Shown: positions 28,200 to 59,410 of the stretch, in pieces
How the letters are laid out: each line of letters begins with the position of its first letter
Position numbering within the stretch: position 1 is the first letter of the stretch
Origin: a virus
Taxonomy: Duplodnaviria > Heunggongvirae > Uroviricota > Caudoviricetes
Strand: one strand, 5' to 3'
DNA length: 64,000 nt
Virus record (IMG/VR): IMGVR_UViG_3300027721_000009
Span: 1-64,000 of that record
Notes under the pieces: model-generated
Seen by the model: only the letters and a program-made list of their open reading frames with translations
What the model was told of the DNA's origin: nothing
The model's database searches: none
Position numbers and translations under genes: made by a program

Positions 28200-28390
28200 T
28201 TGTAGCCACCCCGCTACCCTGATATCCCCTAGACCTCGCGCCTCGCTACGGGCTTCCTAGAGCGTCCTAGAGGGCATCCGTAAGTCCTTGATTCTATTGG
28301 GGTTATTCCCCTATAATTACCCTCGCGTAAGTCCTTGATAAGATTAAGGTTATTGCGCTTGCCTATTTTTAGGGTATTCGGTATGATTAG
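28200..28390 (+). repeat. intergenic repeat element, copy 1; contains CGTAAGTCCTTGATTC twice (28279-28294 and 28326-28339)
   Basis: Direct comparison with copies at 36613, 40380, 51255 and 59245. Confidence 0.7.
28359..28387 (+). promoter_or_regulatory. sigma70-like promoter TTGCCT-N17-TATGAT; predicted TSS at about 28394 (leaderless)
   Basis: Hexamers and spacer read from the sequence. Confidence 0.5.
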
Positions 28391-28393
28391 AGT

Positions 28394-28630
28394 ATGGAAG
28401 TTAAACATTTTGCCTCGGTCTGCGAAGCGGTCTGCTCGTTGATCGAACAGGGCTATCATACGGTGTTGGAAGATGCCGGTGCCGCCAAGGTGCGTCTTAT
28501 GATGCGCGACGGTGGCGATATCATGGTGGTCCGCTACGTCGGCTTGCTCTCGGCTACGGTCGAGCAGGATGACGGGTTTTGGGCTGACAAGCTTGAAGAT
28601 TGGGCGTCTGACGCTCCGGACTATCTGTAA
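28394..28630 (+). CDS. hypothetical protein
   Basis: 78-aa ORF at the predicted TSS. Confidence 0.45.
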   Translation: MEVKHFASVCEAVCSLIEQGYHTVLEDAGAAKVRLMMRDGGDIMVVRYVGLLSATVEQDDGFWADKLEDWASDAPDYL

Positions 28631-28836
28631 TGACCAACAAATACGCGCAGTTCGAATATCACGGTGGTCCGTATGACCGTGGCGCGGCTGACTATTACTA
28701 CTGGCGACCGCGCAATCCGCACAAGTACCCGAATGGTACGTACAACGGTCCCGAAGTCACCGACCTGACTCCGGAAGAGGTTGAGGCGTATAACGCCGGT
28801 TACGATGAATGCAACGACCGTAAGGATTGGGGTTAA
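28630..28836 (+). CDS. hypothetical protein
   Basis: 68-aa ORF. Confidence 0.4.
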   Translation: MTNKYAQFEYHGGPYDRGAADYYYWRPRNPHKYPNGTYNGPEVTDLTPEEVEAYNAGYDECNDRKDWG

Positions 28837-28837
28837 C

Positions 28838-29032
28838 ATGAAACTCGGTTCACGTACTCCGTTGACCATCCCGCAAGTCTGGAAGTTGCTCGACGCTGCT
28901 ATCTGGATGCGCGACAATCACAAGCCGCGTTGCGATGGCATGTCGCACGATGAATACATTGCGAGCCTGCGGAAAATCATCACCGACAAGTGCGATGAAA
29001 CCGACCGCATGTTCGAAAGGAATGCCGCTTGA
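28838..29032 (+). CDS. hypothetical protein
   Basis: ATG directly after the upstream stop. Confidence 0.4.
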   Translation: MKLGSRTPLTIPQVWKLLDAAIWMRDNHKPRCDGMSHDEYIASLRKIITDKCDETDRMFERNAA

Positions 29033-29379
29033 TCGCTGCGCCTAAAATCGGCTCGCAGATTCGCGTGCAGACCAAATTCGGTTTGCGCGAGGGAACCGTT
29101 GTTCCTAATCAGAAGTGGGAAAAGGCAGACACGTTCTGCATGACGGGTGACGCTGCGATTGCTATTCGCAATATCGCGCTCGCCAATGTCGTCACAATCG
29201 AATACATAACAGGCGCACCGTCGAAAGATGCCGTGCGTGCCTTTCGCGTCAAGTCTACGGACAAGAAACGCGAATACATCGTGACGGTTAGCGGCAACAA
29301 GATTGACTGCAACTGCACCGGCTTTACCTATCATCACAAGTGCAAGCATTCGGATGCTGTGCGAAGGAAAATCAAATGA
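29029..29379 (+). CDS. SWIM-type zinc-finger protein
   Basis: CNCTGFTYHHKCKH = CxCxnCxH. Confidence 0.5.
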   Translation: MIAAPKIGSQIRVQTKFGLREGTVVPNQKWEKADTFCMTGDAAIAIRNIALANVVTIEYITGAPSKDAVRAFRVKSTDKKREYIVTVSGNKIDCNCTGFTYHHKCKHSDAVRRKIK

Positions 29380-34484: not shown

Positions 34485-34761
34485 GGACAAAGGGAAGCGT
34501 CAGAAAAGACTAATCCAAAAGGTCCGGAATATAACCAAATGGTTGAAACGGGAACGAGTAAAGGCAAAAGAGGCAGGCGTAAGGTTCACAGTCGAGAATG
34601 AGAAAGATGCACACATTGAAGCGAATCACGGTAAACGTTGTTCTTGCGATATGTGCTGTAATCCACGCCATTCAAGATTCCATAAGGGAACAGGACGCTT
34701 GACTCTCCAAGAGAGGAAAGCAAATGAGAAGGCTAATGACGAGTTTGATGAACAAGGTTGA
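34483..34761 (+). CDS. doubtful small basic Cys-containing ORF
   Basis: Lys/Arg-rich. Its start codon lies inside the -10 element. Confidence 0.25.
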   Translation: MDKGKRQKRLIQKVRNITKWLKRERVKAKEAGVRFTVENEKDAHIEANHGKRCSCDMCCNPRHSRFHKGTGRLTLQERKANEKANDEFDEQG

Positions 34762-34905: not shown

Positions 34906-35835
34906 ATGAAGATTATGAAGTTGAAAGTAATGTTGATGGTCGCGATGCTTGCCCTTTCGGGTACGGCATTTGCTGTCCAACCGGTAAATCCCGGTAATAG
35001 TGGTGGTGAAGGTAACAACACCAACTGTCAGGGAACGGGCAACCCGAATTCACCTTGCGTGCCTACGCCTCGCGACCCTCGCGACGGTGGTAATGGCGGC
35101 AACGGTGGAAACGGTGGTAATGGCGGCAACGGCGGCGCGGGTGGTGATGCCACTGCGGTTGGCGTTGGTGTCGGCATCGGCGTAGGCATTGCGAATGCCG
35201 AAGCGAGCGCGGCAGCACTTGCCTCCGCATCGAATCGCACAGAAGTTGATGTGCGCAATACCAACACGAACCTGAACAGTCAGCTACAGGGTCAGGTACA
35301 GGGTCAGTCGCAGACTAACAATGCGTCGGTTGGCAACGTAACGTCGGGTGACGTAACTTCGACAAACACCAATAACAACACCGCAACCGGTGGTCAGGGT
35401 GGAAGTGCGGTCGCAGCAGCAACCGTTGAATCGGGTGCCGTGTCGGTTGCCGAAGGTGCGGTTCAGAGCAATCTGAATTACACGTACAAGGAAGTGCGTC
35501 AGGCTCCTGCGATTGGTCAGGGTAGCTTCGCCATCAGTGGTTGTAGCGTTGCCGGTAATGCCGGTGCGTCTAGCCCCGGTGGAGCAGGCTTCCTAGGCTT
35601 TGGTTTCACACCTTCGCAGTGCTATGACTTCATGTTGGCACAGGCTTACCAGTCAATCGGTGAGAAGAAGGCAGTGTGCGATATCTTGAAGAACAGCAAG
35701 GCAGGCAAGCGTCAGGCGAAGCGTGGTATCACGTTGCCTGAATGTCTGCCGGAAGTTCAGGAAGTCAAGACTGTCGTAGTCGAAGTCCCGAAGACTGTCT
35801 ACGTGGAAGTCCCTCCTGCCAAGATCAGCGAATAA
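34906..35835 (+). CDS. secreted low-complexity Gly/Asn/Gln-rich repeat protein
   Basis: Signal peptide MKIMKLKVMLMVAMLALSGTAFA. (GGN)n run. Cys pairs near the C-terminus. Confidence 0.55.
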   Translation: MKIMKLKVMLMVAMLALSGTAFAVQPVNPGNSGGEGNNTNCQGTGNPNSPCVPTPRDPRDGGNGGNGGNGGNGGNGGAGGDATAVGVGVGIGVGIANAEASAAALASASNRTEVDVRNTNTNLNSQLQGQVQGQSQTNNASVGNVTSGDVTSTNTNNNTATGGQGGSAVAAATVESGAVSVAEGAVQSNLNYTYKEVRQAPAIGQGSFAISGCSVAGNAGASSPGGAGFLGFGFTPSQCYDFMLAQAYQSIGEKKAVCDILKNSKAGKRQAKRGITLPECLPEVQEVKTVVVEVPKTVYVEVPPAKISE

Positions 35836-36620: not shown

Positions 36621-36722
36621 TTCGTAAGTCCTTGATTCCTAAAGAGTTTCTCTTATTGCTTAGTTCTTAGTCTTCCTGTAGACTTATCTTATAGGTTGAT
36701 GATTTCAAGCAAGGACTAACAG
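36613..36722 (+). repeat. intergenic repeat element, copy 2 (CGTAAGTCCTTGATTC at 36623-36638) with a weak promoter TTGCTT-N17-TAGACT at 36656-36684
   Basis: Sequence comparison with the other copies. Confidence 0.5.
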
Positions 36723-37601
36723 ATGCCGCGTGGCGTACCGAAAGCGGGTTTCCGCATGACAAAGAATCGAAAGGCTCGCAAGGGTGGCAAAGTCACCAAT
36801 TCCGTGACCTTCGACAATGCGGCAATGTATCGCGAGCCTGAGATTCAGGAAACCGAAGACCAGATTCGGAACAAGCTTGATGAACGCTTTTCGGCAATGA
36901 CCATGATGGTCGAGTCAGCCATCAAGGGTGACGTTCGCGCCATCATTTTCTCCGGTCCTGCCGGTGTCGGCAAGTCGCATGAAGTGCACGCTGCACTGGA
37001 CCGACTCAAGCCGTATCACACGATCATTCACGGTTTCGTTCGCCCGACCGGTCTGTACCGTACCCTGTACGAATACCGTCAGCCGGGTTCGGTTGTCGTC
37101 CTTGACGATGCCGACTCAATCTTTGGCGACGACATTTCGCTGAACATCCTCAAGGTCGCGTGCGACACTACGCGCAAGCGTGAGATTTCTTGGCTCTCCG
37201 AGATTCGCATGGAAGATGAAGGTGGCGACAAGCTCCCGCGTTCCTACGAATTCGAAGGCACGATCATCTTCATTACGAATCAGGACTTCGACTACCTGAT
37301 CGAAAAGGGCAACAAGCTTGCGCCGCATATGTCGGCTCTTGTTTCCCGGTCCATGTACCTCGACATGAAAATGCATTCGAAGCGCGACTACATCGTGCGC
37401 ATCAAGCAAGTTCTCGAAAAGGGCATGTTGAAGGATTACGGTCTTTCGAAGCAGGATGAAACGGAAATCATGGACTTCATTACGAAGTATCAGGATACCA
37501 TCCGCGAACTCTCGCTGCGCATGGTGGTCAAGCTTGCGAACCTCAAGAAGTCGCGTCCGACTAAGTGGTATTCGCTCGCTAAGGTCTTCTGCGTCAAGTA
37601 A
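36723..37601 (+). CDS. AAA-type P-loop ATPase
   Basis: Walker A FSGPAGVGKSH, Walker B VVVLDDAD. Confidence 0.6.
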   Translation: MPRGVPKAGFRMTKNRKARKGGKVTNSVTFDNAAMYREPEIQETEDQIRNKLDERFSAMTMMVESAIKGDVRAIIFSGPAGVGKSHEVHAALDRLKPYHTIIHGFVRPTGLYRTLYEYRQPGSVVVLDDADSIFGDDISLNILKVACDTTRKREISWLSEIRMEDEGGDKLPRSYEFEGTIIFITNQDFDYLIEKGNKLAPHMSALVSRSMYLDMKMHSKRDYIVRIKQVLEKGMLKDYGLSKQDETEIMDFITKYQDTIRELSLRMVVKLANLKKSRPTKWYSLAKVFCVK

Positions 37602-40379: not shown

Positions 40380-40596
40380 CACGATCTGCCGGTACCCGCT
40401 AGGGTAGCCTAGGGTACCCGCAGAAACGCCCCTAGAGGCTCTCAGACAGTCCTAGAGGGCATCCGTAAGTCCTTGATTCTAAAGGGCTTATTTTGATCAA
40501 TTCTTAACCATCCTAAGTGCTTGATTCTCTTAGGGTTTTCCCTATTGCGTATTCCACCGGTTTTGCTATACTGGTTGTACAAGGTAAGGAAAAGAT
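40380..40596 (+). repeat. intergenic repeat element, copy 3 (28-mer GTACCCGCTAGGGTAGCCTAGGGTACCC at 40392-40419; CGTAAGTCCTTGATTC at 40464-40479; variant CTAAGTGCTTGATTC at 40512-40527)
   Basis: The identical 28-mer recurs at 59271-59298. Confidence 0.7.
40545..40572 (+). promoter_or_regulatory. sigma70-like promoter TTGCGT-N16-TATACT
   Basis: Read from the sequence; a leader with AAGGAAAAG RBS precedes the ATG at 40597. Confidence 0.5.
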
Positions 40597-41307
40597 ATGC
40601 TGAATCGCAAAGTCACTGAATGGTCGAGCGCGGAATGCAAGTACGTCGATAAAGGTCGCGTCACTGAGCATGTCGGTCGCTCGCTTTACGTGGCGAACGA
40701 AACCGTCCAGATCATGTCGGACGTATGGGATACGGAAACGTTCCTGTACTCCGTGCGCGACGACGGCACGTTGAGCCGCGATTGCGTCGGCTACTGCGAC
40801 AATCCGGAAATGAATCCGGTCTACGAAATTGATGCGACCGAAGAGGCGTTCGAACTTTATCGCGCCGCGCAGGAAGCTCGCCAGTACGAAACTCTGGTGC
40901 ACAATACGAATGCGGAATACGCGAATCCGGCGCACAAGGGTCGCGTTGTGAAGGTTACGAAAGGTCGCAATACGCCCAAGGGTGTTGTCGGCAAGGTTGT
41001 CGTAATCATCGAACGTCCGTATGGCATGGGCTATCACTCTTCGATGCGCAAGAAACTCGGTATTGCGACCTCGGCTCGCACCGTTGAAAAGGTCATGCCG
41101 AATGGTAAGGTCTTCCAGAATCATGCCGACATGGTATGGGTTTGGGCGCACAACTGCGAAGTCGAAAAGCCGCAGACTGCGGACCTCGCACTCTGCCGCC
41201 AGATGGCGCAGGATTTTGCGAAGGGTGCCGTGAACGGTCTTCGCAAGACGCAGGCTGACCGCTACCAGTACAATGCGCAAGGCATGAAGGGCTACAAGGC
41301 AGCGTAA
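40597..41307 (+). CDS. hypothetical protein
   Basis: 236-aa ORF. Confidence 0.5.
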   Translation: MLNRKVTEWSSAECKYVDKGRVTEHVGRSLYVANETVQIMSDVWDTETFLYSVRDDGTLSRDCVGYCDNPEMNPVYEIDATEEAFELYRAAQEARQYETLVHNTNAEYANPAHKGRVVKVTKGRNTPKGVVGKVVVIIERPYGMGYHSSMRKKLGIATSARTVEKVMPNGKVFQNHADMVWVWAHNCEVEKPQTADLALCRQMAQDFAKGAVNGLRKTQADRYQYNAQGMKGYKAA

Positions 41308-45201: not shown

Positions 45202-45206
45202 CCAAT

Positions 45207-46199: not shown

Positions 46200-46277
46200 C
46201 CAACCAATCGTCCCGCGCATAGCTCGACAGCGCATGTGTACACATGGGCAGAATCAACTGCCGGGATGACCAGATAA

Positions 46278-46349: not shown

Positions 46350-46495
46350 CCAACATCTTGCGTACATTTTCTAGAGGGTGTACGTGAGGACTTGAAAGTA
46401 GCCGACTGGCAAATTACGATTCAAGCGTCACGCCCTTTACGATACAGGGCGACTCATTCAGAAAGTAGTTCATATGGACTACTAAGTAGATCAAT

Positions 46496-46569
46496 GGTGC
46501 CGGTAGCATAATGGTTAATGCCCAAGACTGTGAATCTTGAAGATGCGGGTTCGAATCCCGTCCAGCACC
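46496..46569 (+). tRNA. tRNA-His (GTG) with G-1
   Basis: Extra 5' G pairing with C73; loop CTGTGAA. Confidence 0.7.
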
Positions 46570-46591
46570 CCAAACACAAACGGAGTTTCCC

Positions 46592-46771
46592 ATGGCAGCG
46601 AAGAACGATGTAACAGGCGATAGCATAAAAACTAAGACCGGCAACTCTAATGCATATGCAAAGGGTTGGGATCGTATCTTCAAGAAAGGGAAAGCCAAGA
46701 AAGGTGAAGAACTAACAGTGTGCGTTGCAAAGCGCGGCGTTGGTAAGTCAACCTTCAACAAGAACAATTGA
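46592..46771 (+). CDS. small ORF (59 aa) inside the tRNA array
   Basis: GGAG RBS 7 nt upstream; motif AYAKGWDRIFKKG; its TGA overlaps the first nt of tRNA-Gln. Confidence 0.4.
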   Translation: MAAKNDVTGDSIKTKTGNSNAYAKGWDRIFKKGKAKKGEELTVCVAKRGVGKSTFNKNN

Positions 46772-46843
46772 CCACATGCGGTACCGGTATCTGCACCTTG
46801 TCTTTGAAACAAGATTTTCTAGGTTCGAATCCTAGGTGGTCAG
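46769..46843 (+). tRNA. tRNA-Gln (TTG)
   Basis: Hand-folded; perfect anticodon stem CTTGT/ACAAG, loop CTTTGAA. Confidence 0.65.
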
Positions 46844-46977
46844 CCAATTTCTCTCGCGAGGAAAAACAACGAATCGTACTACGTTGTAAAACAAGGGTAC
46901 GCAACCATGTGCTGAAAGCAGACGGCTAACGTGCTGTCTCTTCCTTCGGGAAGTGGAGTAAGAGTGGTGGTAGTAAG

Positions 46978-47055
46978 CGATTCTAAGATAGTTCAATCAG
47001 GTAGAACAACCTCACGCTAAGAGGGAGACAGAGGTTCAAATCCTCACTAGAATCC
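46978..47055 (+). pseudogene. degenerate tRNA-like sequence (D-arm and T-arm present, acceptor pairing broken, no CCA)
   Basis: TAGTTCAATCAGGTAGAAC D-arm and GGTTCAAATCC T-loop, but no consistent 7-bp acceptor stem. Confidence 0.3.
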
Positions 47056-47093
47056 GGACGCAGCTTCCAAGAATGCCAAATGCGTCCAACTTT

Positions 47094-47164
47094 TCTCGGC
47101 TCGTCTAACGGCAGGACGCAACACTCTGAATGTTGCTATCGAGGTTCGAATCCTTGGCTGAGAA
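47094..47164 (+). tRNA. tRNA-Gln (CTG)
   Basis: Hand-folded; loop CTCTGAA. Confidence 0.7.
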
Positions 47165-47207
47165 CCAAACATACATACTCTTGAGTGACCCTCAAGAGGA
47201 TTACAAG

Positions 47208-47750
47208 ATGGAACCGATTCAAGTGATGTACGAAGGCGACCTCGCCCCTCTGATTGAGTGGGCTGAGAATGGCGACAGGGATCGCGACGGATTAGGCTTC
47301 GCGCCTGAACCGTTCTACTCATGGGTGCGCAATCACATGCCGCCCTACTGTCGCGGATTCGTTACGAACACCATCGGGTACATAACGGAGAATGGAATCT
47401 TCGACGGTGATTGGGTTAAGGGATATCCACATATCCATACCACAACGATGTTTTGGGAACCCGAGATATACACCATCATCACCTATCTGATCGTACCCGA
47501 AGAGGGTGGCGAATTCGCGATGGGTGGATTGGAACGGAACGATCCGTACACTTTGATTCCGGTCAAGCCGGGATTGTCCATCGGGTGTGATTCAATCACA
47601 TGGCATGGAGTCAAGCAAGTACGAAAGGGAAAGCGCGTTGCGATAGTGACGGCAGGCTTTCCATCACAAGAGTACCAGAAGAAATGTCTGGCACTGAGAA
47701 ACGAGAACAAAGGAAGGTTGCGCGAGAGGCTTATGCGCCCTGTTTGCTAA
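47208..47750 (+). CDS. putative 2OG-Fe(II) oxygenase-like protein
   Basis: AGAGGA RBS. HxD...H-like YPHIHTT...WHGV. Last ~40 nt overlap tRNA-Ser(GCT), with the stop TAA inside its anticodon loop. Confidence 0.4.
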   Translation: MEPIQVMYEGDLAPLIEWAENGDRDRDGLGFAPEPFYSWVRNHMPPYCRGFVTNTIGYITENGIFDGDWVKGYPHIHTTTMFWEPEIYTIITYLIVPEEGGEFAMGGLERNDPYTLIPVKPGLSIGCDSITWHGVKQVRKGKRVAIVTAGFPSQEYQKKCLALRNENKGRLRERLMRPVC

Positions 47751-47796
47751 ACAGAGGGATGTAACAGTCACAGAGGTTCGAATCCTCTACCTTCCG
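47712..47796 (+). tRNA. tRNA-Ser (GCT), type II
   Basis: Hand-folded; loop TTGCTAA; long variable arm. Confidence 0.65.
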
Positions 47797-47804
47797 CCAA
47801 ATTT

Positions 47805-47891
47805 GGAAGATTGACCGAGAGGCTTATGGTTCCCGCTTGGAAAGCGGTGAGTGGGGAAACCTACACACAGGTTCAAATCCTGTATCTTCCG
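47805..47891 (+). tRNA. tRNA-Ser (GGA), type II
   Basis: Hand-folded; loop TTGGAAA. Confidence 0.6.
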
Positions 47892-47899
47892 CCACATAT

Positions 47900-47970
47900 G
47901 GTTCTGTCGTATAGAAGCAATACACGGCATTGACATTGCTGAAAAGATGGAGCGTTACCATCCAGAACCA
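47900..47970 (+). tRNA. tRNA (GAC, Val-type) with non-canonical T-loop AGCGTTA
   Basis: Acceptor GGTTCTG/CAGAACC; T-arm GATGG-AGCGTTA-CCATC. Confidence 0.45.
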
Positions 47971-47979
47971 CCAACTAAA

Positions 47980-48064
47980 GGAAGGTTGGCAGAGAGGCTA
48001 ATTGCCGCTGTTTCGAAAGCAGATGGGTGTAAAAACCACACAGGTTCAAATCCTGTACCTTCCG
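47980..48064 (+). tRNA. tRNA-Ser (CGA), type II
   Basis: Hand-folded; loop TTCGAAA. Confidence 0.55.
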
Positions 48065-48073
48065 CCAGACAAT

Positions 48074-48147
48074 GCGAGTGTGATGTAACTGGCAAACGTG
48101 ATCGGCTCAAACCCGATTTTTTGTGGGTTCGAATCCCACCACTCGCA
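48074..48147 (+). tRNA. tRNA with Leu-type anticodon CAA (74 nt, class I length)
   Basis: Perfect anticodon stem ATCGG/CCGAT, loop CTCAAAC. Confidence 0.55.
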
Positions 48148-48154
48148 CCAATAC

Positions 48155-48228
48155 GCGCCTATGACGGAACAGGCATACGTCTAACGTTGAGAACGTTAGT
48201 TTTGTGGGTTCGAATCCCACTAGGCGCA
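48155..48228 (+). tRNA. tRNA with Leu-type anticodon GAG (74 nt, class I length)
   Basis: Perfect anticodon stem TAACG/CGTTA, loop TTGAGAA. Confidence 0.55.
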
Positions 48229-48325
48229 CCAAACATTGAGAGTATGGAAATTACTCAATGAAATTGGACTAGGTGAGGATGGAACGTTGCTAGTACGTAC
48301 ACGGAATACCATAACTGTTTAGTCG

Positions 48326-48495
48326 CCGGAACCATAACCGGAACAATTTACTGAGTCGAGCTAACGCAGGCAACTGAGGAAGTTCGCGACTCTCGCCAAG
48401 GTCGCGTGGGAGGCTAACGCCGTCTAACCACCGTGACACAGAGAGCAACACAAACAGAACGTGGGAAACCTTGGCTTATACGTTCGGGTTGTGGC
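48326..48495 (+). ncRNA. RNase P RNA-like element, apparently miniaturised (catalytic-domain motifs present, specificity-domain region missing)
   Basis: In order: GAGGAAGUUCG (48376; compare E. coli GAGGAAAGUCCGG), GGCUAACGCC (48412; compare GGUAACGCC), ACAGAGAGCAA (48438; exact 11-mer of M1 RNA), ACAGAAC...GGCUUAU (48454-48479; compare ACAGAACCCGGCUUAU). Terminal helix CCAUAACCGGAAC (48332) with GUUCGGGUUGUGG (48482). Confidence 0.45.
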
Positions 48496-48637
48496 AAAGA
48501 TGAATGTTAGCATAGAACAGAATCGCGGCTACGGACTCAGTAATTTCAATAGCTGACCCATACGTGTCGAAAGCTCTTTAGGCAAGACTTGCGGAAGTCG
48601 AAATACGCAAGTTAGACGGTGGGTTGGCGGTACCTAT

Positions 48638-48711
48638 ACCCTTGTAGTTTCAACGGACAGAACACCCCGGTCCTAACGGGTCCAATGCAGGTTCGAATCC
48701 TGTCGAGGGTA
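48638..48711 (+). tRNA. tRNA-Arg (CCT)
   Basis: Hand-folded; loop GTCCTAA; 4-bp anticodon stem. Confidence 0.55.
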
Positions 48712-48722
48712 CCACATATTCG

Positions 48723-48793
48723 CTGTCATCGTATAATGGCTATTACGGATGTTTCGTAAGCATCCTATCTCAGTTCGACTCTGAGTGACAGCA
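48723..48793 (+). tRNA. tRNA-Thr (CGT)
   Basis: Hand-folded; loop TTCGTAA. Confidence 0.65.
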
Positions 48794-48800
48794 CCAGTTT

Positions 48801-48885
48801 GGAAGACTAACTCAACAAGGTTGGGACTCGCCTTGAAAGCGATGGGATGCCTAACGGCATTGGGGCGCGATACCTCAGTCTTCCG
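48801..48885 (+). tRNA. tRNA-Ser (TGA), type II, with non-canonical T-loop CGCGATA
   Basis: Acceptor GGAAGAC/GTCTTCC; loop CTTGAAA. Confidence 0.5.
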
Positions 48886-48964
48886 CCAAGTTAGGGGAAA
48901 CTTTCAGCAAATCAAACAAACTTTACCTGTAATAAAGCAAAAGCGTTTCCCGCCAAATTAGAAA

Positions 48965-49029
48965 GCGTACAGCAAACCAAAATTCTCTACGAAAGACCTA
49001 GACCGGTTCGACTCCGGAATGCTCCACCA
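48965..49029 (+). other. tRNA-like 3' module (T-arm CCGG-TTCGACT-CCGG + CCA) without a matching 5' half
   Basis: Preceded by the CAGCAAACCAA motif shared with 32570/32815, and by a GGGAAAC...GUUUCCC-GCCA minihelix at 48897-48957. Confidence 0.3.
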
Positions 49030-49123
49030 ATGCGAAGGGGCTTTAGTGTAACGGCAGCACATGAAAAAACGCTTTCTGTCTTTCCTAAATAGCCCTATAG
49101 TTTCGACTTTGAGGGCTATCCCA

Positions 49124-50676: not shown

Positions 50677-51255
50677 ATGACGGCTACAGCAGTTCAAATT
50701 CTAATCGCAGACAGCGCAGGCAACCCTAAAGATTGGGTTACGCTCGACTATGCATCCCATTACCTCGCATCCGATAAGGTTGTGTGGCAAGCCGGTTCGG
50801 TTGTCAAGACCTATCGCGGCGGTTTCAACCATGTGACCGGACTGCGTTCGACTCTGGACATTCACTCCATTCTCGGTATCTCCGGTAAGTTGCTAGGCGA
50901 CAAGTTCTTCACCAGAACGACCGTCTACACGGATCGTGAGATTCTGTACGCTCGCGACAGATACCTCTGTGCGTACTGCGGCGACGAGTTCAATGCTTAC
51001 AAGCTAACCATTGACCACGTTCATCCTCAGTCTCGCGGTGGTAAGAACGTCTGGCAGAACTGCGTCACCGCATGTAAGACTTGTAACCACAAGAAGGGTG
51101 ACAAGACTCCGGAAGAGGCAAAGATGCCATTGCTCTATGTGCCATACGCGCCAAACATGTTCGAAAAGATGATTCTAAAGAATCGCAACATCCTTTCGGA
51201 TCAGATGGACTTCCTCAAGGCGCGGGTTCCTAAGACTTCCAGAGTCTTCCTGTAA
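50677..51255 (+). CDS. HNH endonuclease
   Basis: C-terminal CAYCGDEF...LTIDHVHP...NCVTACKTCNHKKGDK HNH/zinc motif. Confidence 0.75.
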   Translation: MTATAVQILIADSAGNPKDWVTLDYASHYLASDKVVWQAGSVVKTYRGGFNHVTGLRSTLDIHSILGISGKLLGDKFFTRTTVYTDREILYARDRYLCAYCGDEFNAYKLTIDHVHPQSRGGKNVWQNCVTACKTCNHKKGDKTPEEAKMPLLYVPYAPNMFEKMILKNRNILSDQMDFLKARVPKTSRVFL

Positions 51256-51406
51256 GCCGTTCGGCAGGCTCCCTAGGCTACCCTACCGGTGCCTAGGTGC
51301 GCCTCACCAGAGGCTTCCTAGAGCGTTCTAGGGCATATCGTAAGTCATTGATTTGTAAGGGGTTGGGAAGGTTGACTTCCCGCCCCTTTTTGCTTATAAT
51401 GGTTGT
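51255..51406 (+). repeat. intergenic repeat element, copy 4 (CCCTAGGCTACCC inverted sub-motif at 51275-51287, palindrome CCTAGAGCGTTCTAGG, CGTAAGTCATTGATT at 51339-51353)
   Basis: Sequence comparison with the other copies. Confidence 0.65.
51372..51400 (+). promoter_or_regulatory. sigma70-like promoter TTGACT-N17-TATAAT; predicted TSS at about the ATG 51407 (leaderless)
   Basis: Read from the sequence. Confidence 0.55.
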
Positions 51407-51763
51407 ATGACTGATCATCACACTCCATTCTGGATTGAAGGGCTGTACGTTCTCAACGAGGGCGAGCTTGCCCGTCAGACTCTTACCGAGACTCGCATCT
51501 ATCGCGGCAACGATCCGCGATGCGTAATTCTCGGCGGCGATGCCTATTGGCAGTGGAGCGAGTTCGGTCCCTACAGAAACCACAATCAGGGTTTTTGTTG
51601 GACTCAGGCTCTTCACGATGGACTTGAGGGTTGGCATTCGACCATCTTCCATGCGGACGAGAATCCCCGATTCTGTGTGCATCCGCAGCATCCCGACTAT
51701 GCGCACGTTGCGCGGATTTGGGATTTGGTCAACGCGAACGTGTTCGTTCCGAAGGATTGGTAA
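51407..51763 (+). CDS. hypothetical protein
   Basis: 118-aa ORF beginning at the predicted TSS. Confidence 0.45.
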   Translation: MTDHHTPFWIEGLYVLNEGELARQTLTETRIYRGNDPRCVILGGDAYWQWSEFGPYRNHNQGFCWTQALHDGLEGWHSTIFHADENPRFCVHPQHPDYAHVARIWDLVNANVFVPKDW

Positions 51764-53739: not shown

Positions 53740-54063
53740 ATGAGCTTAGACGTATACTTGAAGAAAGTGATGCCAACCGAAATCTATTCGGACAACATCA
53801 CTCACAACCTCGCGCCCATGGCGAAGCAAGCCGGTATCTACGAAGTCCTCTGGCGACCAGAAGACCTCGGACTCAAATATGCGCGAGACTTGATTCCGTT
53901 CCTTGAAACGGGATTGCTTGAGTTGTCTCGGCATCCGGAACTCTACGAGCAGTTGAACCCCGCGAATGGGTGGGGCAACTATGTCGGCTTGAAGGTATTC
54001 GTTCGCGAGTACCTAGAAGCCTGCCGTGCGAATCCGGATGCGGAGGTAGAGGTTTCACGATGA
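53740..54063 (+). CDS. hypothetical protein
   Basis: 107-aa ORF. Confidence 0.4.
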   Translation: MSLDVYLKKVMPTEIYSDNITHNLAPMAKQAGIYEVLWRPEDLGLKYARDLIPFLETGLLELSRHPELYEQLNPANGWGNYVGLKVFVREYLEACRANPDAEVEVSR

Positions 54064-54293
54064 ACAAGAATGAAGCAATCGAAGAGTGTAACAGATACCT
54101 CGCACGCAACGAAGCGCAACGCGCCCGTTCGGTAAGACTACAAGAGTTGGCGAGCATGGCGCGTAACGGTAAGCCAGAAGAGGCGAAGCGTGCGCTGCGC
54201 GAGCTAGACGCAGACCGCATGAACCTGACAGTTTATGACGGTGCGAATCTAGAATTAGCCATCAAAACACTGCTAAAACTCGTAAGTGCTTGA
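54060..54293 (+). CDS. hypothetical protein
   Basis: ATG at 54060 (MNKNEAIEE). Confidence 0.4.
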   Translation: MNKNEAIEECNRYLARNEAQRARSVRLQELASMARNGKPEEAKRALRELDADRMNLTVYDGANLELAIKTLLKLVSA

Positions 54294-54348
54294 ACTAAAA
54301 GGTGTTCTAATAGTTGCGTTTTTCGATGTTAAGTGAGACAATAATAGT

Positions 54349-55239
54349 ATGAGTAAAGCATTCAAACCGATTCTTGCCGGTAAGTTCGACGCGAGCAAGC
54401 AGAAATTCCCGGTACTCGCATCCGCAAAGCTCGACGGCGTGCGGTGTATCGTCATTGACGGCGTGGCAATGTCGCGCAGTCTCAAGCCGATTCCGAATGA
54501 ATTCGTTCAGAAGCAAATCGGCAAAGCCAAGTACAACGGACTCGACGGCGAACTCATGGTAGGATTCGTCGGCGGCAAGGATGTTTACCGCAATACCGTT
54601 TCGGCAGTCATGTCCGAAGACGGCACGCCTGCGTTCACCTTTTGGGTGTTCGACAAGGTTCCGCAGAATCCAGAACGCGCCGAAGGCTATGCCGACCGGC
54701 TTGCGTCAATCCAGAAGTTCGACGGCGACGGCGCAATCAAGGTGCTGCCGCATACACTGATCAAGGATATGGACTCGCTCGACCGGTTCGAAGCGAAGCA
54801 ACTTGAGCGTGGCTTGGAAGGCGTGATTCTTCGCGCCCCGAAGGGTCCGTACAAGTTCGGCAGATCGTCCACCAACGAAGGCACGCTACTGAAACTCAAG
54901 CGATTCGAAGACTCCGAAGCTGAGATTATCGGCGTGGAAGAGTTGCTTTCCAATCAGAACGATGCGAACAAGAATGCCCTCGGTCACACTGAGCGCAGTT
55001 CGCACAAGGCTAACATGGTGCCAATGGGAACCATGGGCGCACTCAACGTTCGCGACCTCAAGAGCAAGGTGGAATTCTCCATCGGCACCGGTTTCGATGC
55101 GGACACCCGCGCCGAATTCTGGAAGACGCGCAAGAGCGTCATCGGCAAGATCGTGAAGTACAAGTATTTCGCGAGCGGTTCGAAAGACAAGCCGCGTTTC
55201 CCGGTCTTCCTCGGCTTCCGTGACAAGAGGGACATGTAA
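54349..55239 (+). CDS. ATP-dependent DNA ligase (small, T7-like)
   Basis: Motif I KLDGVR, EGVILR, LKLK, plus a C-terminal OB-like region. Confidence 0.7.
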   Translation: MSKAFKPILAGKFDASKQKFPVLASAKLDGVRCIVIDGVAMSRSLKPIPNEFVQKQIGKAKYNGLDGELMVGFVGGKDVYRNTVSAVMSEDGTPAFTFWVFDKVPQNPERAEGYADRLASIQKFDGDGAIKVLPHTLIKDMDSLDRFEAKQLERGLEGVILRAPKGPYKFGRSSTNEGTLLKLKRFEDSEAEIIGVEELLSNQNDANKNALGHTERSSHKANMVPMGTMGALNVRDLKSKVEFSIGTGFDADTRAEFWKTRKSVIGKIVKYKYFASGSKDKPRFPVFLGFRDKRDM

Positions 55240-56324: not shown

Positions 56325-56691
56325 GCTAGACCATCTAATCGGCGCAACGGGACTCGCCCTGTTCATCTTCGCAGGCTTTCTTGCCGGATGCGAGCCGAAG
56401 CCGCACGGTCCACCTTTGCTGACCGAATGCAAATTCGAAACGCCCCTGAACGTCAACATCATCGTGTTAGACGACAAAGCCATGCGCGAGAAGTGGGAAT
56501 ACTACAATCGCACAAAGCTACCCGAAGCTGCGAAAGTCGAAGGGTTTGCCATCTATAACAAAGCCACCGGTCTTCATACCTTATTTGTATTAGAGATAAG
56601 AGGGCAGGCTGATCATGACCGGATTGAAACCATCGGGCATGAGCTAATGCATTCTTTCTGCGGCGACTGGCATCCGCGAAATTATGGTTGA
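56317..56691 (+). CDS. lipoprotein with HExxH metallopeptidase motif
   Basis: Lipobox FLAGC; GHELMHSF. Confidence 0.5.
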   Translation: MNKLDHLIGATGLALFIFAGFLAGCEPKPHGPPLLTECKFETPLNVNIIVLDDKAMREKWEYYNRTKLPEAAKVEGFAIYNKATGLHTLFVLEIRGQADHDRIETIGHELMHSFCGDWHPRNYG

Positions 56692-56716
56692 CAAATCGAC
56701 TAAATAGTAGTAGACT
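56688..56716 (+). promoter_or_regulatory. sigma70-like promoter TTGACA-N17-TAGACT
   Basis: Read from the sequence; same unusual -10 TAGACT as the 36656 candidate. Confidence 0.4.
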
Positions 56717-56769
56717 ATAAGGCAGAGGATAGACCTCTACCATATTAACTCTAAGGGAGCCTTAGAAAC

Positions 56770-57828
56770 ATGAGCAAGCAAACACACATGTCCGTGTTCA
56801 TCGGACGCTTTCAGCCGCCACACAAGGCGCACATCGAAACCATCACTCGCGCATTGGAATTCTCCGACAAGGTGCTAATTCTAATCGGTTCGGCATTCAA
56901 GCCATCCGACACGCGCAATCCGTTCCCCGCAGCAGAACGCCGGGAAATGATCCAGACTTGCTTTAATCTGGAAACGCAAAAGCGACTCGTATTCGACTAT
57001 ATCTCCGACCATCCATACAACGATCTTGCGTGGGTGAAGAATGTCCAGACCGCAATCGACAAGGCTTACTATGACAACTTCGGTTGGCAGGACAAGGCTG
57101 ACATTACGCTGATCGGACACCACAAAGACGAGTCCACGTATTATCTCGACCTCTTCCCGTCTTACAAGCAAGCGGAAATGGAGAACATCTACGGTCTGGA
57201 TTCCACGACCATCCGTGAACTCTACTTCGCAGGCAAGGATGCGTGGAAGAACAGCAACATGAAGCGTGTCGCGCAGTTCGTTCCGCAGCCGGTCATGAAC
57301 TACATCACCAATCACATGAAGCTGATCGCGTATGATCGTCTTGTGCGCGAATTCGAATTCCTTCGCACCTACAGGCTACAGTGGTCGCAGGCTCCGTATC
57401 CACCAGTGTTCGTCACTGCGGATGCCGTTGTCACCAACATGGGACACGTTCTACTCGTTCGCCGCAAGTCCGCACCGGGAGAAGGTCTGTGGGCAATGCC
57501 GGGAGGTTTCCTCAATCAGTACGAAACGCTGCGTGAGTGTGCGAATCGCGAACTAGAGGAAGAGACTAAGATCAAGGTTCCGCCGCGAGTCCTCGACGGT
57601 TCAATCGTCAAGGAAAAGCGATACGATCATCCCGGTCGCTCGCTGCGCGGACGCACGATCACAACCGCATTTCACTTCGATCTACATGAACGGACTATGC
57701 CGAAGGTTCGCGGCTCAGATGACGCTGCGCAAGCCAAGTGGGTTCCGTTGGCTGAATTCATCAAGATGCAAGCCGTCATGTACGAAGACCACTATTCAAT
57801 CATCACCGACCTTCTAGGTTTGGGCTGA
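56770..57828 (+). CDS. natV: bifunctional NMN adenylyltransferase / Nudix hydrolase (NadM-Nudix, NatV-like)
   Basis: N-terminal [12 protein letters not shown] (HxGH-type); C-terminal Nudix box [24 protein letters not shown]. Confidence 0.85.
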
Positions 57829-57870
57829 GATAGACTTAGCCCCGTTTCAACAGCAGATAAGGAGTTTATC

Positions 57871-59244
57871 ATGCGTACCAATCTTCTACTTAACACCGAC
57901 TCGTACAAGGCTTCCCACTGGCTCCAATACCCACCGGGAACAGAGTACGTCTATTCATACATCGAATCTCGCGGCGGTCTTCATGACGCGACCGTGTTCT
58001 TCGGTCTACAGGCATTCGTAAAAGAATACCTGATCGGCGGCGTGTTTACTCAGGATGACATTGAGGAAGCCGCAGCGTTCTTTGCCGCACATGGCGAACC
58101 GTTCAATCGTGAGGGATGGGAATACATCCTGCGCGAATACGGTGGCAAGCTGCCAATCGAAATCAAGGCACTGCCAGAAGGTCTGCGCGTTCCTGTGCGC
58201 ACTCCGCTAGTCACCATCGTCAACACAGACCCGAAGTGCTTCTGGTTGACCTCGTATCTGGAAACCGCACTGCTTCGCGCAGTCTGGTATCCGACGACTG
58301 TTGCGACAATCTCACACTACATCAAGACCATCATCAAGCGTGAACTGGAAGAGACAGGCGACCTCGCCGGTCTGCCGTTCAAGCTACATGACTTCGGTGC
58401 GCGTGGCGTATCGTCCAACGAATCCGCAGCCCTCGGTGGCATGGCGCATCTGGTCAACTTCCAAGGCTCCGACACGGTTCAGGGTGTAGTCGCGGCGGCT
58501 CGTTACTACAACGAGAAGATGGCAGCGTTCTCCATCCCCGCAGCCGAGCATTCCACGATTACTACGTGGGGTAAGACTCGCGACGGTGAGACTGCGGCAT
58601 ACTACAACATGATTCAGAAGTACAGCAAGCCGGGAAGCATCTTCGCAGTTGTTTCTGACTCCTACGATATCTTCAAGGCGTGCGAAGAGATTTGGGGTGG
58701 AAGCCTCAAGGATGCCGTAATTGCTCACGGTGGTACTCTGGTCATCCGTCCTGACTCCGGTGATCCGGTTGCTGTCACACTTCGCTGCGTCCAGATTCTT
58801 GACGAGAAGTTCGGCAGCACTCGCAATGACAAGGGATTCAAAGTCCTCAATCACGTTCGACTCATTCAGGGTGACGGTGTGAATCCTTCAAGCATCGAAG
58901 CCATCCTGATGAACTTCAAGGCACATGGCTACAGCGCAGACAACATTGCGTTCGGCATGGGCGGCGCGTTGCTCCAACACATGAACCGTGACACACAAGA
59001 GTTCGCAATGAAGGCGAGCGCAGTCATGGTCAACGGTGAATGGCGGGACGTATCCAAGTCACCTGTCGGTCAGGCTTCGAAAAAGTCGAAAGGTGGACGT
59101 TTCTCGGTGGTTATGGAAGGCGGTCGCCTGATAACCATCGGTTATGACGAGACTGAGGAAGACTACTTGAGAACCGTTCTCATCAACGGGAAACTGGTAC
59201 GGGACATGACACTAAGCCAGATTCGCTACAATACGAGCCTCTAG
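57871..59244 (+). CDS. nadV: nicotinamide phosphoribosyltransferase (NadV/Nampt)
   Basis: NTDSYKASHW N-terminus and type II PRTase pattern over the full length. Confidence 0.85.
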   Translation: MRTNLLLNTDSYKASHWLQYPPGTEYVYSYIESRGGLHDATVFFGLQAFVKEYLIGGVFTQDDIEEAAAFFAAHGEPFNREGWEYILREYGGKLPIEIKALPEGLRVPVRTPLVTIVNTDPKCFWLTSYLETALLRAVWYPTTVATISHYIKTIIKRELEETGDLAGLPFKLHDFGARGVSSNESAALGGMAHLVNFQGSDTVQGVVAAARYYNEKMAAFSIPAAEHSTITTWGKTRDGETAAYYNMIQKYSKPGSIFAVVSDSYDIFKACEEIWGGSLKDAVIAHGGTLVIRPDSGDPVAVTLRCVQILDEKFGSTRNDKGFKVLNHVRLIQGDGVNPSSIEAILMNFKAHGYSADNIAFGMGGALLQHMNRDTQEFAMKASAVMVNGEWRDVSKSPVGQASKKSKGGRFSVVMEGGRLITIGYDETEEDYLRTVLINGKLVRDMTLSQIRYNTSL

Positions 59245-59410
59245 AAGCCTAATATGAGCCGTTTGGGGAGTACCCGCTAGGGTAGCCTAGGGTACCCCCA
59301 AATAGCCCCAAAACGCCTCTCAGGGGGCTTACAGAGGCTCTCGTAAGTGCTTGATTCTATTAGGGTTATTAGGGCTAATCTAAGTTACTGATTCTTAAAA
59401 GCTTTTTCGT
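59245..59410 (+). repeat. intergenic repeat element, copy 5 (28-mer GTACCCGCTAGGGTAGCCTAGGGTACCC at 59271-59298; CGTAAGTGCTTGATTC at 59342-59357; variant CTAAGTTACTGATTC at 59380-59394)
   Basis: 28-mer identical to 40392-40419. Confidence 0.7.

Follow-up and report, generated by a model that had tools for sequence, protein, structure and literature searches.

Within the window, as we call the whole 64 kb stretch of DNA that was analysed, six intergenic cassettes share a 34-nt motif that contains the 15-mer GTAAGTSCTTGATTC and occurs in nine copies, all on the + strand. The repeat family is real and non-random. Allowing <=3 mismatches, the 15-mer has 11 matches compared with 3.2 +/- 1.8 in shuffled sequences, and 0 of 100 shuffles reached 11. 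A weight-matrix scan returned seven strong copies (28279, 28326, 36623, 40464, 40512, 51339 and 59342) and one weaker copy (59379), again all on the + strand.

A sequence-only reading had described five intergenic regions with three sub-motifs, all of which we find close to where it placed them. The family holds, but a sixth cassette had been missed; it lies at 54281, upstream of DNA ligase, and has the same downstream layout as the others. The 28-mer GTACCCGCTAGGGTAGCCTAGGGTACCC occurs exactly twice, at 40392 as given before and at 59270 rather than 59271, and the inverted core CCCTAGGCTACCC of this 28-mer sits at 51271 rather than 51275. CCTAGAG is found nine times on the + strand, five times inside cassettes (28256, 28266, 40431, 40451 and 51317), and all four occurrences of the longer box TCCTAGAGSG are inside cassettes. 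Regions 1, 3 and 4 have CCTAGAG boxes, region 5 has a degenerate form and region 2 has none. The features, by cassette, are as follows.

28043..28078, + strand: cassette 1, terminator-like hairpin with T-rich tail TTGCTTTTAG, 5' of the repeat block; 9-bp stem with 7 GC pairs
28255..28274, + strand: cassette 1, two tandem CTAG boxes, TCCTAGAGCG and TCCTAGAGGG, 22 and 12 nt before the distal motif
28279..28312, + strand: cassette 1, distal 34-nt motif CGTAAGTCCTTGATTC...; IHF-consensus match on the - strand
28326..28358, + strand: cassette 1, proximal motif, 47 nt after the distal motif
28359..28396, + strand: cassette 1, promoter with -35 TTGCCT, 17-nt spacer and -10 TATGAT; 6 nt to ATG 28394, predicted leaderless mRNA
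36623..36655, + strand: cassette 2, single motif (weight matrix, IHF-consensus match)
36656..36725, + strand: cassette 2, promoter with -35 TTGCTT, 17-nt spacer and -10 TAGACT; leader with AAGGA, ATG 36723 of the nrdC.10-like gene
40385..40424, + strand: cassette 3, hairpin on the 28-mer (40392-40419), its stem lengthened by CUGC/GCAG flanks
40430..40459, + strand: cassette 3, CTAG boxes in a 10-nt ladder, with CTAG 65, 55, 32 and 12 nt before the distal motif
40464..40497, + strand: cassette 3, distal motif (weight matrix, IHF-consensus match)
40512..40544, + strand: cassette 3, proximal motif, 48 nt after the distal motif
40545..40599, + strand: cassette 3, promoter with -35 TTGCGT, 16-nt spacer and -10 TATACT; leader, ATG 40597
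51254..51332, + strand: cassette 4, hairpin with the inverted core CCCTAGGCTACCC (51271-51283), and a short CCTAGA/TCTAGG hairpin
51339..51371, + strand: cassette 4, single motif CGTAAGTCATTGATTT (weight matrix, IHF-consensus match)
51364..51409, + strand: cassette 4, terminator-like hairpin enclosing the -35 TTGACT (51372)
within 51364..51409, + strand: cassette 4, promoter with 17-nt spacer and -10 TATAAT (51395); 6 nt to ATG 51407, predicted leaderless
54281..54313, + strand: cassette 6, motif CGTAAGTGCTTGAACT, overlapping the stop codon of ORF 53970-54293
54314..54351, + strand: cassette 6, promoter with -35 TTGCGT, 17-nt spacer and -10 GACAAT; 6 nt to the DNA ligase ATG 54349, predicted leaderless
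59261..59303, + strand: cassette 5, hairpin on the 28-mer (59270-59297), its stem lengthened by UUUGGGG/CCCCAAA flanks
59342..59375, + strand: cassette 5, distal motif (weight matrix, IHF-consensus match)
59379..59411, + strand: cassette 5, more degenerate proximal motif TCTAAGTTACTGATTC, matching WATCAR, 37 nt after the distal motif
59412..59439, + strand: cassette 5, promoter with -35 TTGCAT, 16-nt spacer and -10 TATACT

The coupling to promoters is tighter than had been claimed. From the start of TTGA/CTGA in the proximal motif to the -35 hexamer is exactly 24 nt in all six cassettes, and the -10 hexamer lies 16-17 nt beyond. The motif-linked -35 hexamers are non-consensus (TTGCNT in five, TTGACT in one), compared with TTGACA in four and TTGCCA in one of the five near-consensus promoters that lack the repeat (32520, 41868, 50614, 56688 and 61918), a comparison biased by the fact that these motif-less promoters came from a consensus scan. 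Three cassettes (1, 4 and 6), with the ATG 6 nt past the -10, are predicted to give leaderless mRNAs.

Strong hairpins are present in regions 3, 4 and 5 (z-scores -4.5, -2.6 and -3.1), with no comparable hairpin in regions 2 and 6. In regions 3 and 5 no T-run follows the hairpin, and only the hairpins at 28043 and 51364 resemble intrinsic terminators. The "terminator or insulator" proposed earlier is partly supported. Likewise, the statement that the cassettes always precede small early-type genes is partly true, as the genes behind them also encode a 292-aa nrdC.10-like protein, a 236-aa protein and DNA ligase.

The motif as a probable IHF-type site, and its carriers

On the opposite strand the motif core TAAGTnnTTGATT reads as the IHF consensus WATCAANNNNTTR, in the form given in several papers (e.g. 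PMC8942017, PMC9452768). The window holds eight matches to this consensus where about 0.9 are expected per strand, and seven of the eight are the motif. Conservation extends past the consensus, to the CG before TAAGT and to GT/AC inside the NNNN spacer. In lambda attP, the stretch flanked by the P1 and P2 Int sites reads CTAAGTAGTTGATTC, which is the H1 IHF site, reportedly described by Craig and Nash in 1984. The window motif, C[G/C]TAAGTnnTTGATTC, equals it at all constrained positions, with two unconstrained bases differing.

The repeats are conserved in related genomes, both those of uncultured relatives and that of Stenotrophomonas phage DLP6. In the uncultured relatives whole cassettes are conserved at orthologous positions, with 24 or 25 nt from motif to -35 as read from the sequences. 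The orthologue of cassette 2 is at 5903 in relative L118; those of cassettes 5 and 6 are at 4738 and 329 in L119, the latter with the same 6-nt layout from -10 to ATG as in the window. The two motifs of region 3 are 48 nt apart in the window and 37 nt apart in L118 and L282, an 11-nt indel. Orthologues of the gene at 40597 with 44-79% identity keep the motif and have TTGTGT, TTGCGT or TTGAAT as -35, whereas at 40-42% identity the motif is absent and the -35 is TTGACA. The flanks have wholly diverged where relatives at 44% protein identity still keep the motif. In L118 the DNA ligase and nrdC.10-like genes are translationally coupled; in the window and L119 the ligase gene lies 17 kb from the other, behind its own cassette.

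DLP6, a T4-superfamily phage with homologues of 13 window proteins, has 14 paired motif cassettes. Its + strand carries 28 matches to WATCAANNNNTTR (1.25 expected), 27 of them in cassettes, and its version of the site, AATCAACGACTTAG, differs by one base from AATCAACTACTTAG, the reverse complement of H1. The distance from ATCAA to -35 is 23/24 nt in three cassettes, 33/34 nt in eight and 44 nt in two; in the fourteenth the -35 is not clear, and the place of the -10 fits the 23/24 class. The hairpins between motif and -35 vary in sequence. A positional counterpart of cassette 2 lies at 34653-34730, 5' of the homologous gene. The DLP6 paper lists 25 PHIRE "phage promoters", 22 of the 25 in twos before gene clusters (Peters et al. 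2017, PMC5349666), and motif pairs are found just 5' of five clusters named there (AAY80_060, _092, _113, _121 and _131).

The motif also occurs in unrelated phages: T4-superfamily phages, KL1/Epa40 siphoviruses and small terminase-bearing contigs. In small siphoviruses it adjoins primase genes, where the DNA is AT-rich and origin-like. Many other phages have it as a 27-bp palindrome that is nearly perfect and would suit a homodimeric regulator as well as IHF, and some contigs have tandem half-sites every 21-22 nt, too tight for IHF footprints of ~35 bp. Across the broad metagenomic set a sigma-70-like promoter is not generally found after the motif.

No HU/IHF homologue was found in the window, in the other loci examined or in the complete DLP6 genome. 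Given that DLP6 lacks such a gene despite its 14 paired cassettes, any IHF-type binder would be the host's. The architectural protein site in the cassettes is most likely one for host IHF, the presence of IHF in the host being assumed.

Competing explanations

Judging from sequence, we consider it probable that the six regions are modular early-gene control cassettes of a large DLP6-like T4-superfamily phage, in which an IHF-type site assists weak promoters. The earlier idea of a modular cassette ending in a promoter for host RNA polymerase is borne out by the invariant 24-nt spacing, the conservation in relatives and the equivalent system in DLP6. Points against an IHF-type site that assists promoters are the conservation past the IHF consensus, the palindromic form and closely spaced half-sites in other phages, the promoter seldom seen after the motif in the metagenomic set, and a geometry that differs between the window and DLP6.

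Alternatively, the motif could be the operator of a phage-encoded dimeric early repressor or activator, its likeness to IHF sites being coincidence or specificity mimicry. Arguing for this case, the 27-bp version is dyad-symmetric in many phage contigs, conservation exceeds the IHF consensus, motif stretches are strongly enriched in viral contigs over bacterial genomes (69 versus 12), and iteron-like tandem arrays occur at 21-22 nt spacing. Counter to this, the carriers span unrelated phage types, the motif is near-identical to lambda H1, and the motif-bearing loci have no protein family in common except PhoH, GP88 and terminase/structural genes. The 61990 product, which had been put forward as the regulator, has no Pfam or PHROG match and no recognisable DNA-binding domain. 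We therefore regard an operator for a phage regulator, as first suggested, as doubtful, and less likely than a site matching the host IHF consensus.

The repeats might instead be chiefly recombination substrates or mobile cassettes, comparable to the promoter-early stem-loops (PeSLs) of T4-type phages, with the 15-mer kept by gene conversion and not by regulation. The relocation of the ligase gene goes with a cassette, an HNH endonuclease gene lies directly 5' of cassette 4, and PeSLs provide a precedent. This explanation is quite improbable, as gene conversion accounts neither for the invariant 24-nt spacing and the 10-nt steps in DLP6, where the sequences in between are unrelated, nor for the retention of the motif at 44% protein identity between fully diverged flanks, nor for the complementarity of motif and TTGACA.

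That the motif itself is a phage-specific promoter for a phage-modified or phage-encoded polymerase or sigma factor follows the "phage promoters" label given to the paired repeats before gene clusters in PMC5349666, but is very improbable, since PHIRE finds repeated words only, a well-spaced -35/-10 pair is already present downstream in each cassette, and the motif occurs in both orientations relative to genes and also near primase genes in origin-like siphovirus regions. A role as an RNA hairpin in processing, stability or termination, for which the foldable 27-mer palindrome and the strong strand bias relative to genes could be cited, is hardly credible given that the central two positions of each half-site vary without co-variation (every L207 copy, for instance, has GC facing CG), the copies in the window make poor palindromes, a distance to the -35 that changes by helical turns is a property of DNA, and Rfam gives no match.

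Proposed mechanism and comparison with known systems

The best reading is that the cassettes are PeSL-like terminator/promoter units plus an added architectural protein site. The quantisation in DLP6 and the 11-nt indel in region 3 argue for a motif that works as DNA and keeps phase with the promoter. Read 5' to 3', the layout begins with a variable GC-rich hairpin (some copies only) and a ladder of CTAG boxes in ~10 nt steps. One or two putative ~30-bp protein-binding sites with the IHF core follow, then a sigma-70 promoter whose weak -35 lies exactly 24 nt past the TTGA of the proximal site. Next comes a leader that carries a ribosome-binding site or, in its place, an ATG 6 nt past the -10. 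In the mechanism that we infer, which takes in the binding of IHF, promoter activation, the start sites of transcription and any terminator activity, host IHF would bind the site(s) and sharply bend the DNA just 5' of the -35, bringing upstream DNA onto RNA polymerase and making up for the poor -35. The whole cassette may insulate each early transcription unit and, because it is repeated, could serve as a recombination substrate that moves genes, as proposed for PeSLs.

Lambda attP H1 resembles the window in its site; its role is in site-specific recombination, not transcription. IHF-assisted sigma-70 promoters include lambda pL, Mu Pe and ilvPG, which like the window have an IHF site 5' of the promoter. 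To our knowledge these have a single site, further upstream than in the window, and none of them is known to have a site abutting the -35 together with a second site half-integral turns away, in an arrangement repeated across the genome.

The PHIRE repeats of DLP6 are the same motif (AAATCAACGACTTAG/C being the reverse complement of the window motif), mostly paired and placed before gene clusters of a related T4-superfamily phage. DLP6 differs in that the motif is mostly inverted, pairs are spaced by 25 nt, a true terminator hairpin stands between motif and -35 (TTTACT), and CTAG boxes are missing. Site centres in the two genomes are, by our estimate, about half a helical turn apart relative to the -35. 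With this offset and the opposite orientation in the window to most DLP6 cassettes, one simple bend geometry fails to fit both. Where PMC5349666 read the repeats as promoters, we see IHF-type sites 5' of a sigma-70 promoter.

PeSLs are known from RB49/phi1, T4/PST and KVP40/nt-1 (Arbiol et al. 2010, PMC2839356; Comeau et al. 2014, PMC4122927, from which we take the definition). Like the cassettes described here, they are composite intergenic units that recur in the plastic early part of a T4-superfamily genome, bring together stem-loops, a sigma-70-like early promoter and a downstream gene start, and are tied to gene relocation between relatives. As described, PeSLs have the stem-loop just 5' of the promoter and an AT-rich upstream region. 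In the window, by contrast, a conserved IHF-consensus site, single or paired, lies a fixed 24 nt from the -35, with phased CTAG boxes before it; the hairpin stands another 75-100 nt upstream, is missing in two cassettes and mostly without a T-run, and three cassettes predict leaderless mRNAs.

Repeat cassettes and their predicted promoters

The repeat finding is real and functional-looking. On sequence grounds, the repeats are best described as early-promoter cassettes that resemble the promoter-early stem-loop (PeSL) repeats of T4-type phages and carry a phase-locked, putative IHF-type architectural site. All sub-motifs listed in the sequence-only reading can be found, 1-4 nt from the coordinates given there: the hairpin-forming 28-mer lies at 40392 and again at 59270, with the inverted core at 51271. 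The CCTAGAG-type repeats (CTAG boxes), in the form TCCTAGAGSG, occur four times in the window, always within cassettes. The 15-mer noted earlier is the beginning of a 34-nt motif, CGTAAGTSCTTGATTCTAWWRGGGTTATT. All its copies, seven strong and one weaker, are on the + strand. A sixth cassette, absent from the sequence-only reading, lies 5' of the DNA ligase gene and overlaps the stop codon of ORF 53970-54293. The six cassettes fall within 31 kb of small or accessory genes.

Repeat cassettes of the window and the hexamers of their predicted promoters
Cassette 1, about 28200, +, intergenic repeat region: -35 TTGCCT, -10 TATGAT
Cassette 2, about 36613, +, intergenic repeat region: -35 TTGCTT, -10 TAGACT
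Cassette 3, about 40380, +, intergenic repeat region: -35 TTGCGT, -10 TATACT
Cassette 4, about 51255, +, intergenic repeat region: -35 TTGACT, -10 TATAAT
Cassette 5, about 59245, +, intergenic repeat region: -35 TTGCAT, -10 TATACT
Cassette 6, 54281, +, repeat region 5' of DNA ligase: -35 TTGCGT, -10 GACAAT

The window is a portion of a large phage genome with every gene on the + strand and a GC content of about 0.50. Its T4-type accessory genes encode a gp61-like primase, an nrdC.10-like protein, an RnlA-like RNA ligase, DNA ligase, NAMPT, a NUDIX/cytidylyltransferase protein and a class II ribonucleotide reductase. There are 35 tRNA genes at 42.3-48.8 kb (ARAGORN), and Rfam matches at 44732, 45944, 46982 and 47900 add to this very large array (42343-49031), in which tRNA-Ile(TAT) at 43059-43153 is 95 nt long. 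Two strong motif-less promoters lie 5' of the array (41868-41896, TTGACA-17-TATACT; 41976-42004, TTGACT-17-TAAACT). The cluster of sugar/nucleotide-modifying genes at 1524-27320 (DegT-type aminotransferase, cytidylyltransferases, FkbM methyltransferase, nucleotide-sugar epimerase) makes DNA hypermodification a possibility, which could alter protein recognition of the cassette sites. A tandem 9-nt repeat (ACGGTGGTAATGGCGGCA...) at 35084-35137, within ORF 34906-35835, encodes a glycine/asparagine-rich stretch. The HNH endonuclease gene at 50677-51255, a possible homing element, stops exactly at the start of cassette 4.

Searches with megablast and tblastn found no close relative among cultured phages, and none is close at the DNA level. 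Stenotrophomonas phage DLP6, a 168-kb member of the T4 superfamily with 30 clustered tRNAs (PMC5349666), was picked up solely through a short blastn match to the motif; 13 window proteins have DLP6 homologues at 30-50% identity, colinear in part. Closer uncultured relatives came from IMG/VR and metagenomes: L118, L110 and L222 (a single 172.6-kb contig); L119 and L245; and L005, L234, L239 and L282-L284.

Repeat and predicted promoter are precisely coupled. The TTGA/CTGA of the proximal motif (the copy nearer the promoter where there are two) starts 24 nt 5' of the -35 hexamer in every one of the six cassettes, and each has a TTGNNT -35, a 16-17-nt spacer and a TATAAT-like -10, predicted by sequence match to be a sigma-70-like early promoter. 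The motif-to-(-35) distance is also 24 nt in those cassettes of relatives that were counted from sequence, with 25 nt in L239. DLP6 has 14 paired cassettes, ordered as gene stop, motif, 25 nt, motif, terminator hairpin, TTTACT, 16 nt, TATAAT. There the distance from ATCAA to the -35 is restricted to 23/24, 33/34 or 44 nt, steps of one helical turn each, and the hairpins in between are unrelated in sequence. Most spacings between paired motifs fall near 2.5, 3.5 or 4.5 turns of 10.5 bp, and region 3 orthologues differ by an 11-nt indel between the motifs (48 versus 37 nt).

Start-to-start spacing of motifs within cassettes
Window: 47, 48, 37 nt
L118 and L282: 37 nt
L119: 36 nt
L005 and L234: 47 nt
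DLP6: 25 or 26 nt in pairs; 37 nt inside the three-copy cassette at 34.6 kb

A single helical phase of pair spacing common to all phages was not found, the peaks (25, 33-37, 40-42 and 47-50 nt) being family-specific; across the metagenomic set, the motif was not generally tied to sigma-70-like promoters.

The -35 hexamers that accompany the motif are poor. Motif-less promoters in the window (n=5) have TTGACA in four cases and TTGCCA in one, a comparison that is biased because these promoters came from a consensus scan. Orthologues of gene 40597, the gene downstream of cassette 3, retain the motif at 24 nt, with TTGTGT, TTGCGT or TTGAAT, where protein identity is 79-44%; those at 40-42% identity lack the motif and have a consensus TTGACA-TATACT promoter. 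Such a pattern would be expected of a site that makes up for a weak -35. We consider it very likely that the motif is a DNA-level protein site coupled to the promoter, and quite possible that the protein bound there activates transcription.

In cassettes 1, 4 and 6 an ATG lies 6 nt 3' of the -10 (28382-28396, 51395-51409 and 54337-54351), so the predicted +1 is the A of the start codon and the predicted mRNA is leaderless. L119 has this layout too, as do several DLP6 cassettes with a gap of 7 nt (TATAATGGTTCCTATGATGACTGA), for example at 48089, 90404 and 106668. L118 has the same DNA ligase N-terminus (MSK...), but there the gene is preceded by a Shine-Dalgarno sequence and coupled to the gene 5' of it.

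The probable protein site and its distribution

Read on the opposite strand, the motif core TAAGTnnTTGATT gives WATCAANNNNTTR, the IHF consensus that several papers contain. Seven of nine motif copies match this consensus exactly, an eighth matches WATCAR, and the 54281 copy has two mismatches. The window holds eight consensus matches, compared with about 0.9 expected per strand, and seven of these are the motif; on the + strand of DLP6, 27 of 28 matches (1.25 expected) lie in cassettes. The sole match outside the window cassettes (AATCAAGGGCTTA, 4927-4939, + strand, in coding region 3752-4954) is probably due to chance. We also compared the IHF criterion of an A/T-rich element about 8 nt 5' of WATCAA: the consensus strand has a conserved AATAAC/ATAAGC 8-9 nt 5' of AATCAA, which can equally be read as a degenerate second palindrome half.

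Similarity extends to phage lambda. The fetched sequence of lambda attP reads CTAAGTAGTTGATTC between annotated Int sites 1 and 2, a stretch that we take to be the location of the H1 IHF site, reportedly described by Craig and Nash in 1984. It is identical to window 40512-40527 at 13 of 15 positions, the two differing positions being unconstrained, and it is the same as the motif wherever the window copies are constrained. DLP6 AATCAACGACTTAG is one base off the H1 reverse complement.

A single 16-mer scan of IMG/VR (>117 matches, taken as mostly chance or unrelated phage families) was replaced by a double-motif pattern. The pattern GTAAGTSCTTGAT-N20-40-TAAGTNNYTGAT has 69 exact matches in IMG/VR, against about 0.1 by chance by our own estimate, and only 12 in 596 Gb of bacterial genomes, mostly Proteobacteria MAG contigs. 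Many viral contigs carry the site as a nearly perfect palindrome of 27 bp, such as GTAAGTCCTTGAT-T-ATCAAGGACTTAC, and in the logo of 436 non-redundant instances the left half is strong and the right half weaker. The dyad version is widespread in otherwise unrelated viral contigs (GC 0.35-0.63), often paired around a GC-rich hairpin (L194-L260); contigs carrying it include L208, L229 and L207, which has five cassettes in 6.7 kb ordered terminator-site-site-promoter. Elsewhere the motif adjoins terminase genes, a primase with iteron-like repeats, or phage tRNA genes. In Burkholderia phage KL1 (L273, 37.3-37.7 kb) and Pseudomonas phage Epa40 (L274, 38.0-38.3 kb) it lies in an AT-rich intergenic region beside primase, together with tandem TTTTAATCAATAGGAC repeats, and by sequence this region resembles a replication origin equipped with IHF-type sites. 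At L198, L206, L244 and L261, a reading as attP next to a tRNA fragment was rejected, as these loci hold complete phage tRNA-Met genes (ARAGORN); only L269, beside a chromosomal tRNA-Ser, stays att-like.

The cultured motif carriers infect Stenotrophomonas, Burkholderia and Pseudomonas. The breadth of contexts favours a conserved host protein. We think that the protein at the motif is probably host IHF. The symmetry of the motif and some tandem arrays of 21-22 nt leave room for a different, dimeric binder. Clustering of ORFs for a regulator gene common to motif-bearing contigs gave only terminase/structural proteins, PhoH, GP88, primase and a sigma factor. A phage-encoded HU/IHF was rejected: neither regular expressions nor tblastn with E. 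coli HupA, IhfA and IhfB found a homologue in the window, the motif-bearing loci or the complete DLP6 genome, so an IHF-type binder, if any, would be the host's.

Comparisons by eye rejected a sigma-54 promoter (TGGCAC-N5-TTGC; GG missing or one base displaced in every cassette), an FNR/CRP site (the motif has TTGA-N3-TCAA, not N6), a Fis site (wrong G/C polarity and AT core), a T4 MotA box (wrong spacing to the -10), and CtrA, DnaA and LexA sites (no match). An RNA hairpin is at odds with central dinucleotides that do not co-vary, and the motif as -35 of its own promoter is inconsistent across copies, with TATAAT at the right distance for 28288 only.

Upstream hairpins, CTAG boxes and RNA

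The sequence-only reading had proposed a terminator or insulator as part of each cassette, which the sequences support in part. The 28-mer folds into a stable hairpin, with copy-specific flanks (CUGC/GCAG, UUUGGGG/CCCCAAA, CAGGGG/CCCCUAG) that lengthen the stem; the z-scores are -4.5 (region 3), -3.1 (region 5) and -3.5 (L119). The hairpin is followed by AAACGCCCC in region 3 and UAGCCCC in region 5; neither contains a T-run, and the 28-mer hairpin is therefore not a canonical intrinsic terminator. Stable hairpins lie 75-100 nt 5' of the -35 in regions 3, 4 and 5, and regions 2 and 6 have none. Terminator-like hairpins (GC-rich with a T-run) are found solely at 28043 and at 51364, the latter enclosing the -35. 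DLP6 cassettes have a hairpin directly adjoining the -35.

The CTAG of the boxes and of the 28-mer form a ladder 12, 22, 32, (46), 55 and 65 nt 5' of the distal motif, as counted in regions 1, 3, 4 and 5 and in L118 and L282. This suggests a phased array on one helix face. DLP6 cassettes are without CTAG boxes.

A stretch of about 350 nt that would be transcribed from the predicted cassette-5 promoter (window 59441-59790; L119 4801-5162) has no conserved ORF. The two sequences are 85% identical and differ by indels whose lengths are not multiples of three; two-sequence RNAalifold predicted 84 pairs, 12 of them with two-sided compensatory changes. IMG/VR and the recovered loci yielded no further homologues. 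Rfam 15 gave only tRNAs at gathering score across the window, and nothing at E<=1 for 59200-59850. We regard this segment as a candidate structured non-coding RNA or long leader. A second cassette class with a conserved leader, TATAMTGGKTATTRYAGGGTGAGG..., occurs in DLP6 (84044, 87623, 95544, 101433, 121639), L234 (8648) and the window (59434-59470). By eye, these leaders have a 5' hairpin, for example GGGUGAGGAA-UGG-UUCUUCACCC in L234, with loop and arm sequences that vary among copies; it may be a 5'-end stabiliser.

Significance and relation to known systems

Tentatively, and with more doubt than confidence, we propose that early transcription in the DLP6-like T4-superfamily lineage, including the window, would depend on host IHF. 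It would act via lambda-H1-like sites, paired half-integral helical turns apart and phase-locked to weak sigma-70 promoters, several of them giving leaderless mRNAs. The symmetric 27-bp form (GTAAGTSSTTGAT-W-ATCAASSACTTAC) would then be an unrecognised architectural module in Proteobacteria phages, widely reused beside promoters, primase/origin-like regions, terminase and tRNA genes. If IHF binds, large lytic phages would have a route to tie early expression to a host nucleoid protein, which to our knowledge T4-type phages have not been known to do. Site, phase and pairing would also offer a precise, easily mutated handle on the working and movement of modular promoter cassettes, and because DLP6 is cultured the system is experimentally accessible. 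The widespread palindromic version would be a useful annotation mark for regulatory regions of uncultured phage genomes. A literature search on IHF, early promoters and T4-like phages found no relevant report, and one with motif sequence words returned primers and minicircle constructs only.

The motif has been sighted before, in DLP6. Among 25 "phage promoters" predicted with PHIRE, 22 are paired ahead of gene clusters (PMC5349666), and the motif pairs that we mapped just 5' of AAY80_060, _092, _113, _121 and _131 agree with that description. That paper has neither the IHF reading nor the sigma-70 promoter 3' of the motifs, and its "phage promoters" would be reinterpreted if IHF binds.

PeSLs, in which T4-type phages combine a stem-loop with an early promoter, are composite repeats marking places where genes are shuffled (PMC4122927), and the window cassettes fit this concept. 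In PeSLs a stem-loop just upstream of the promoter serves as terminator, whereas the window hairpins are distant or missing; instead of an AT-rich upstream region, the 34 nt 5' of the -35 are the conserved motif, a putative IHF-type site; and, unlike described PeSLs, the window cassettes have the CTAG ladder and three predict leaderless starts. As in PeSLs, a predicted sigma-70-like early promoter occupies the 3' part of the repeat in all six cassettes, and many copies lie in a plastic region beside gene exchanges, here six copies and a relocated DNA ligase. In L118 the ligase gene (6892-7763) is directly 3' of the nrdC.10-like gene and coupled to it; in the window (54349-55239) and L119 it lies 17 kb from that gene, behind its own cassette. 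The DNA ligase has moved together with its cassette, a visible shuffling event.
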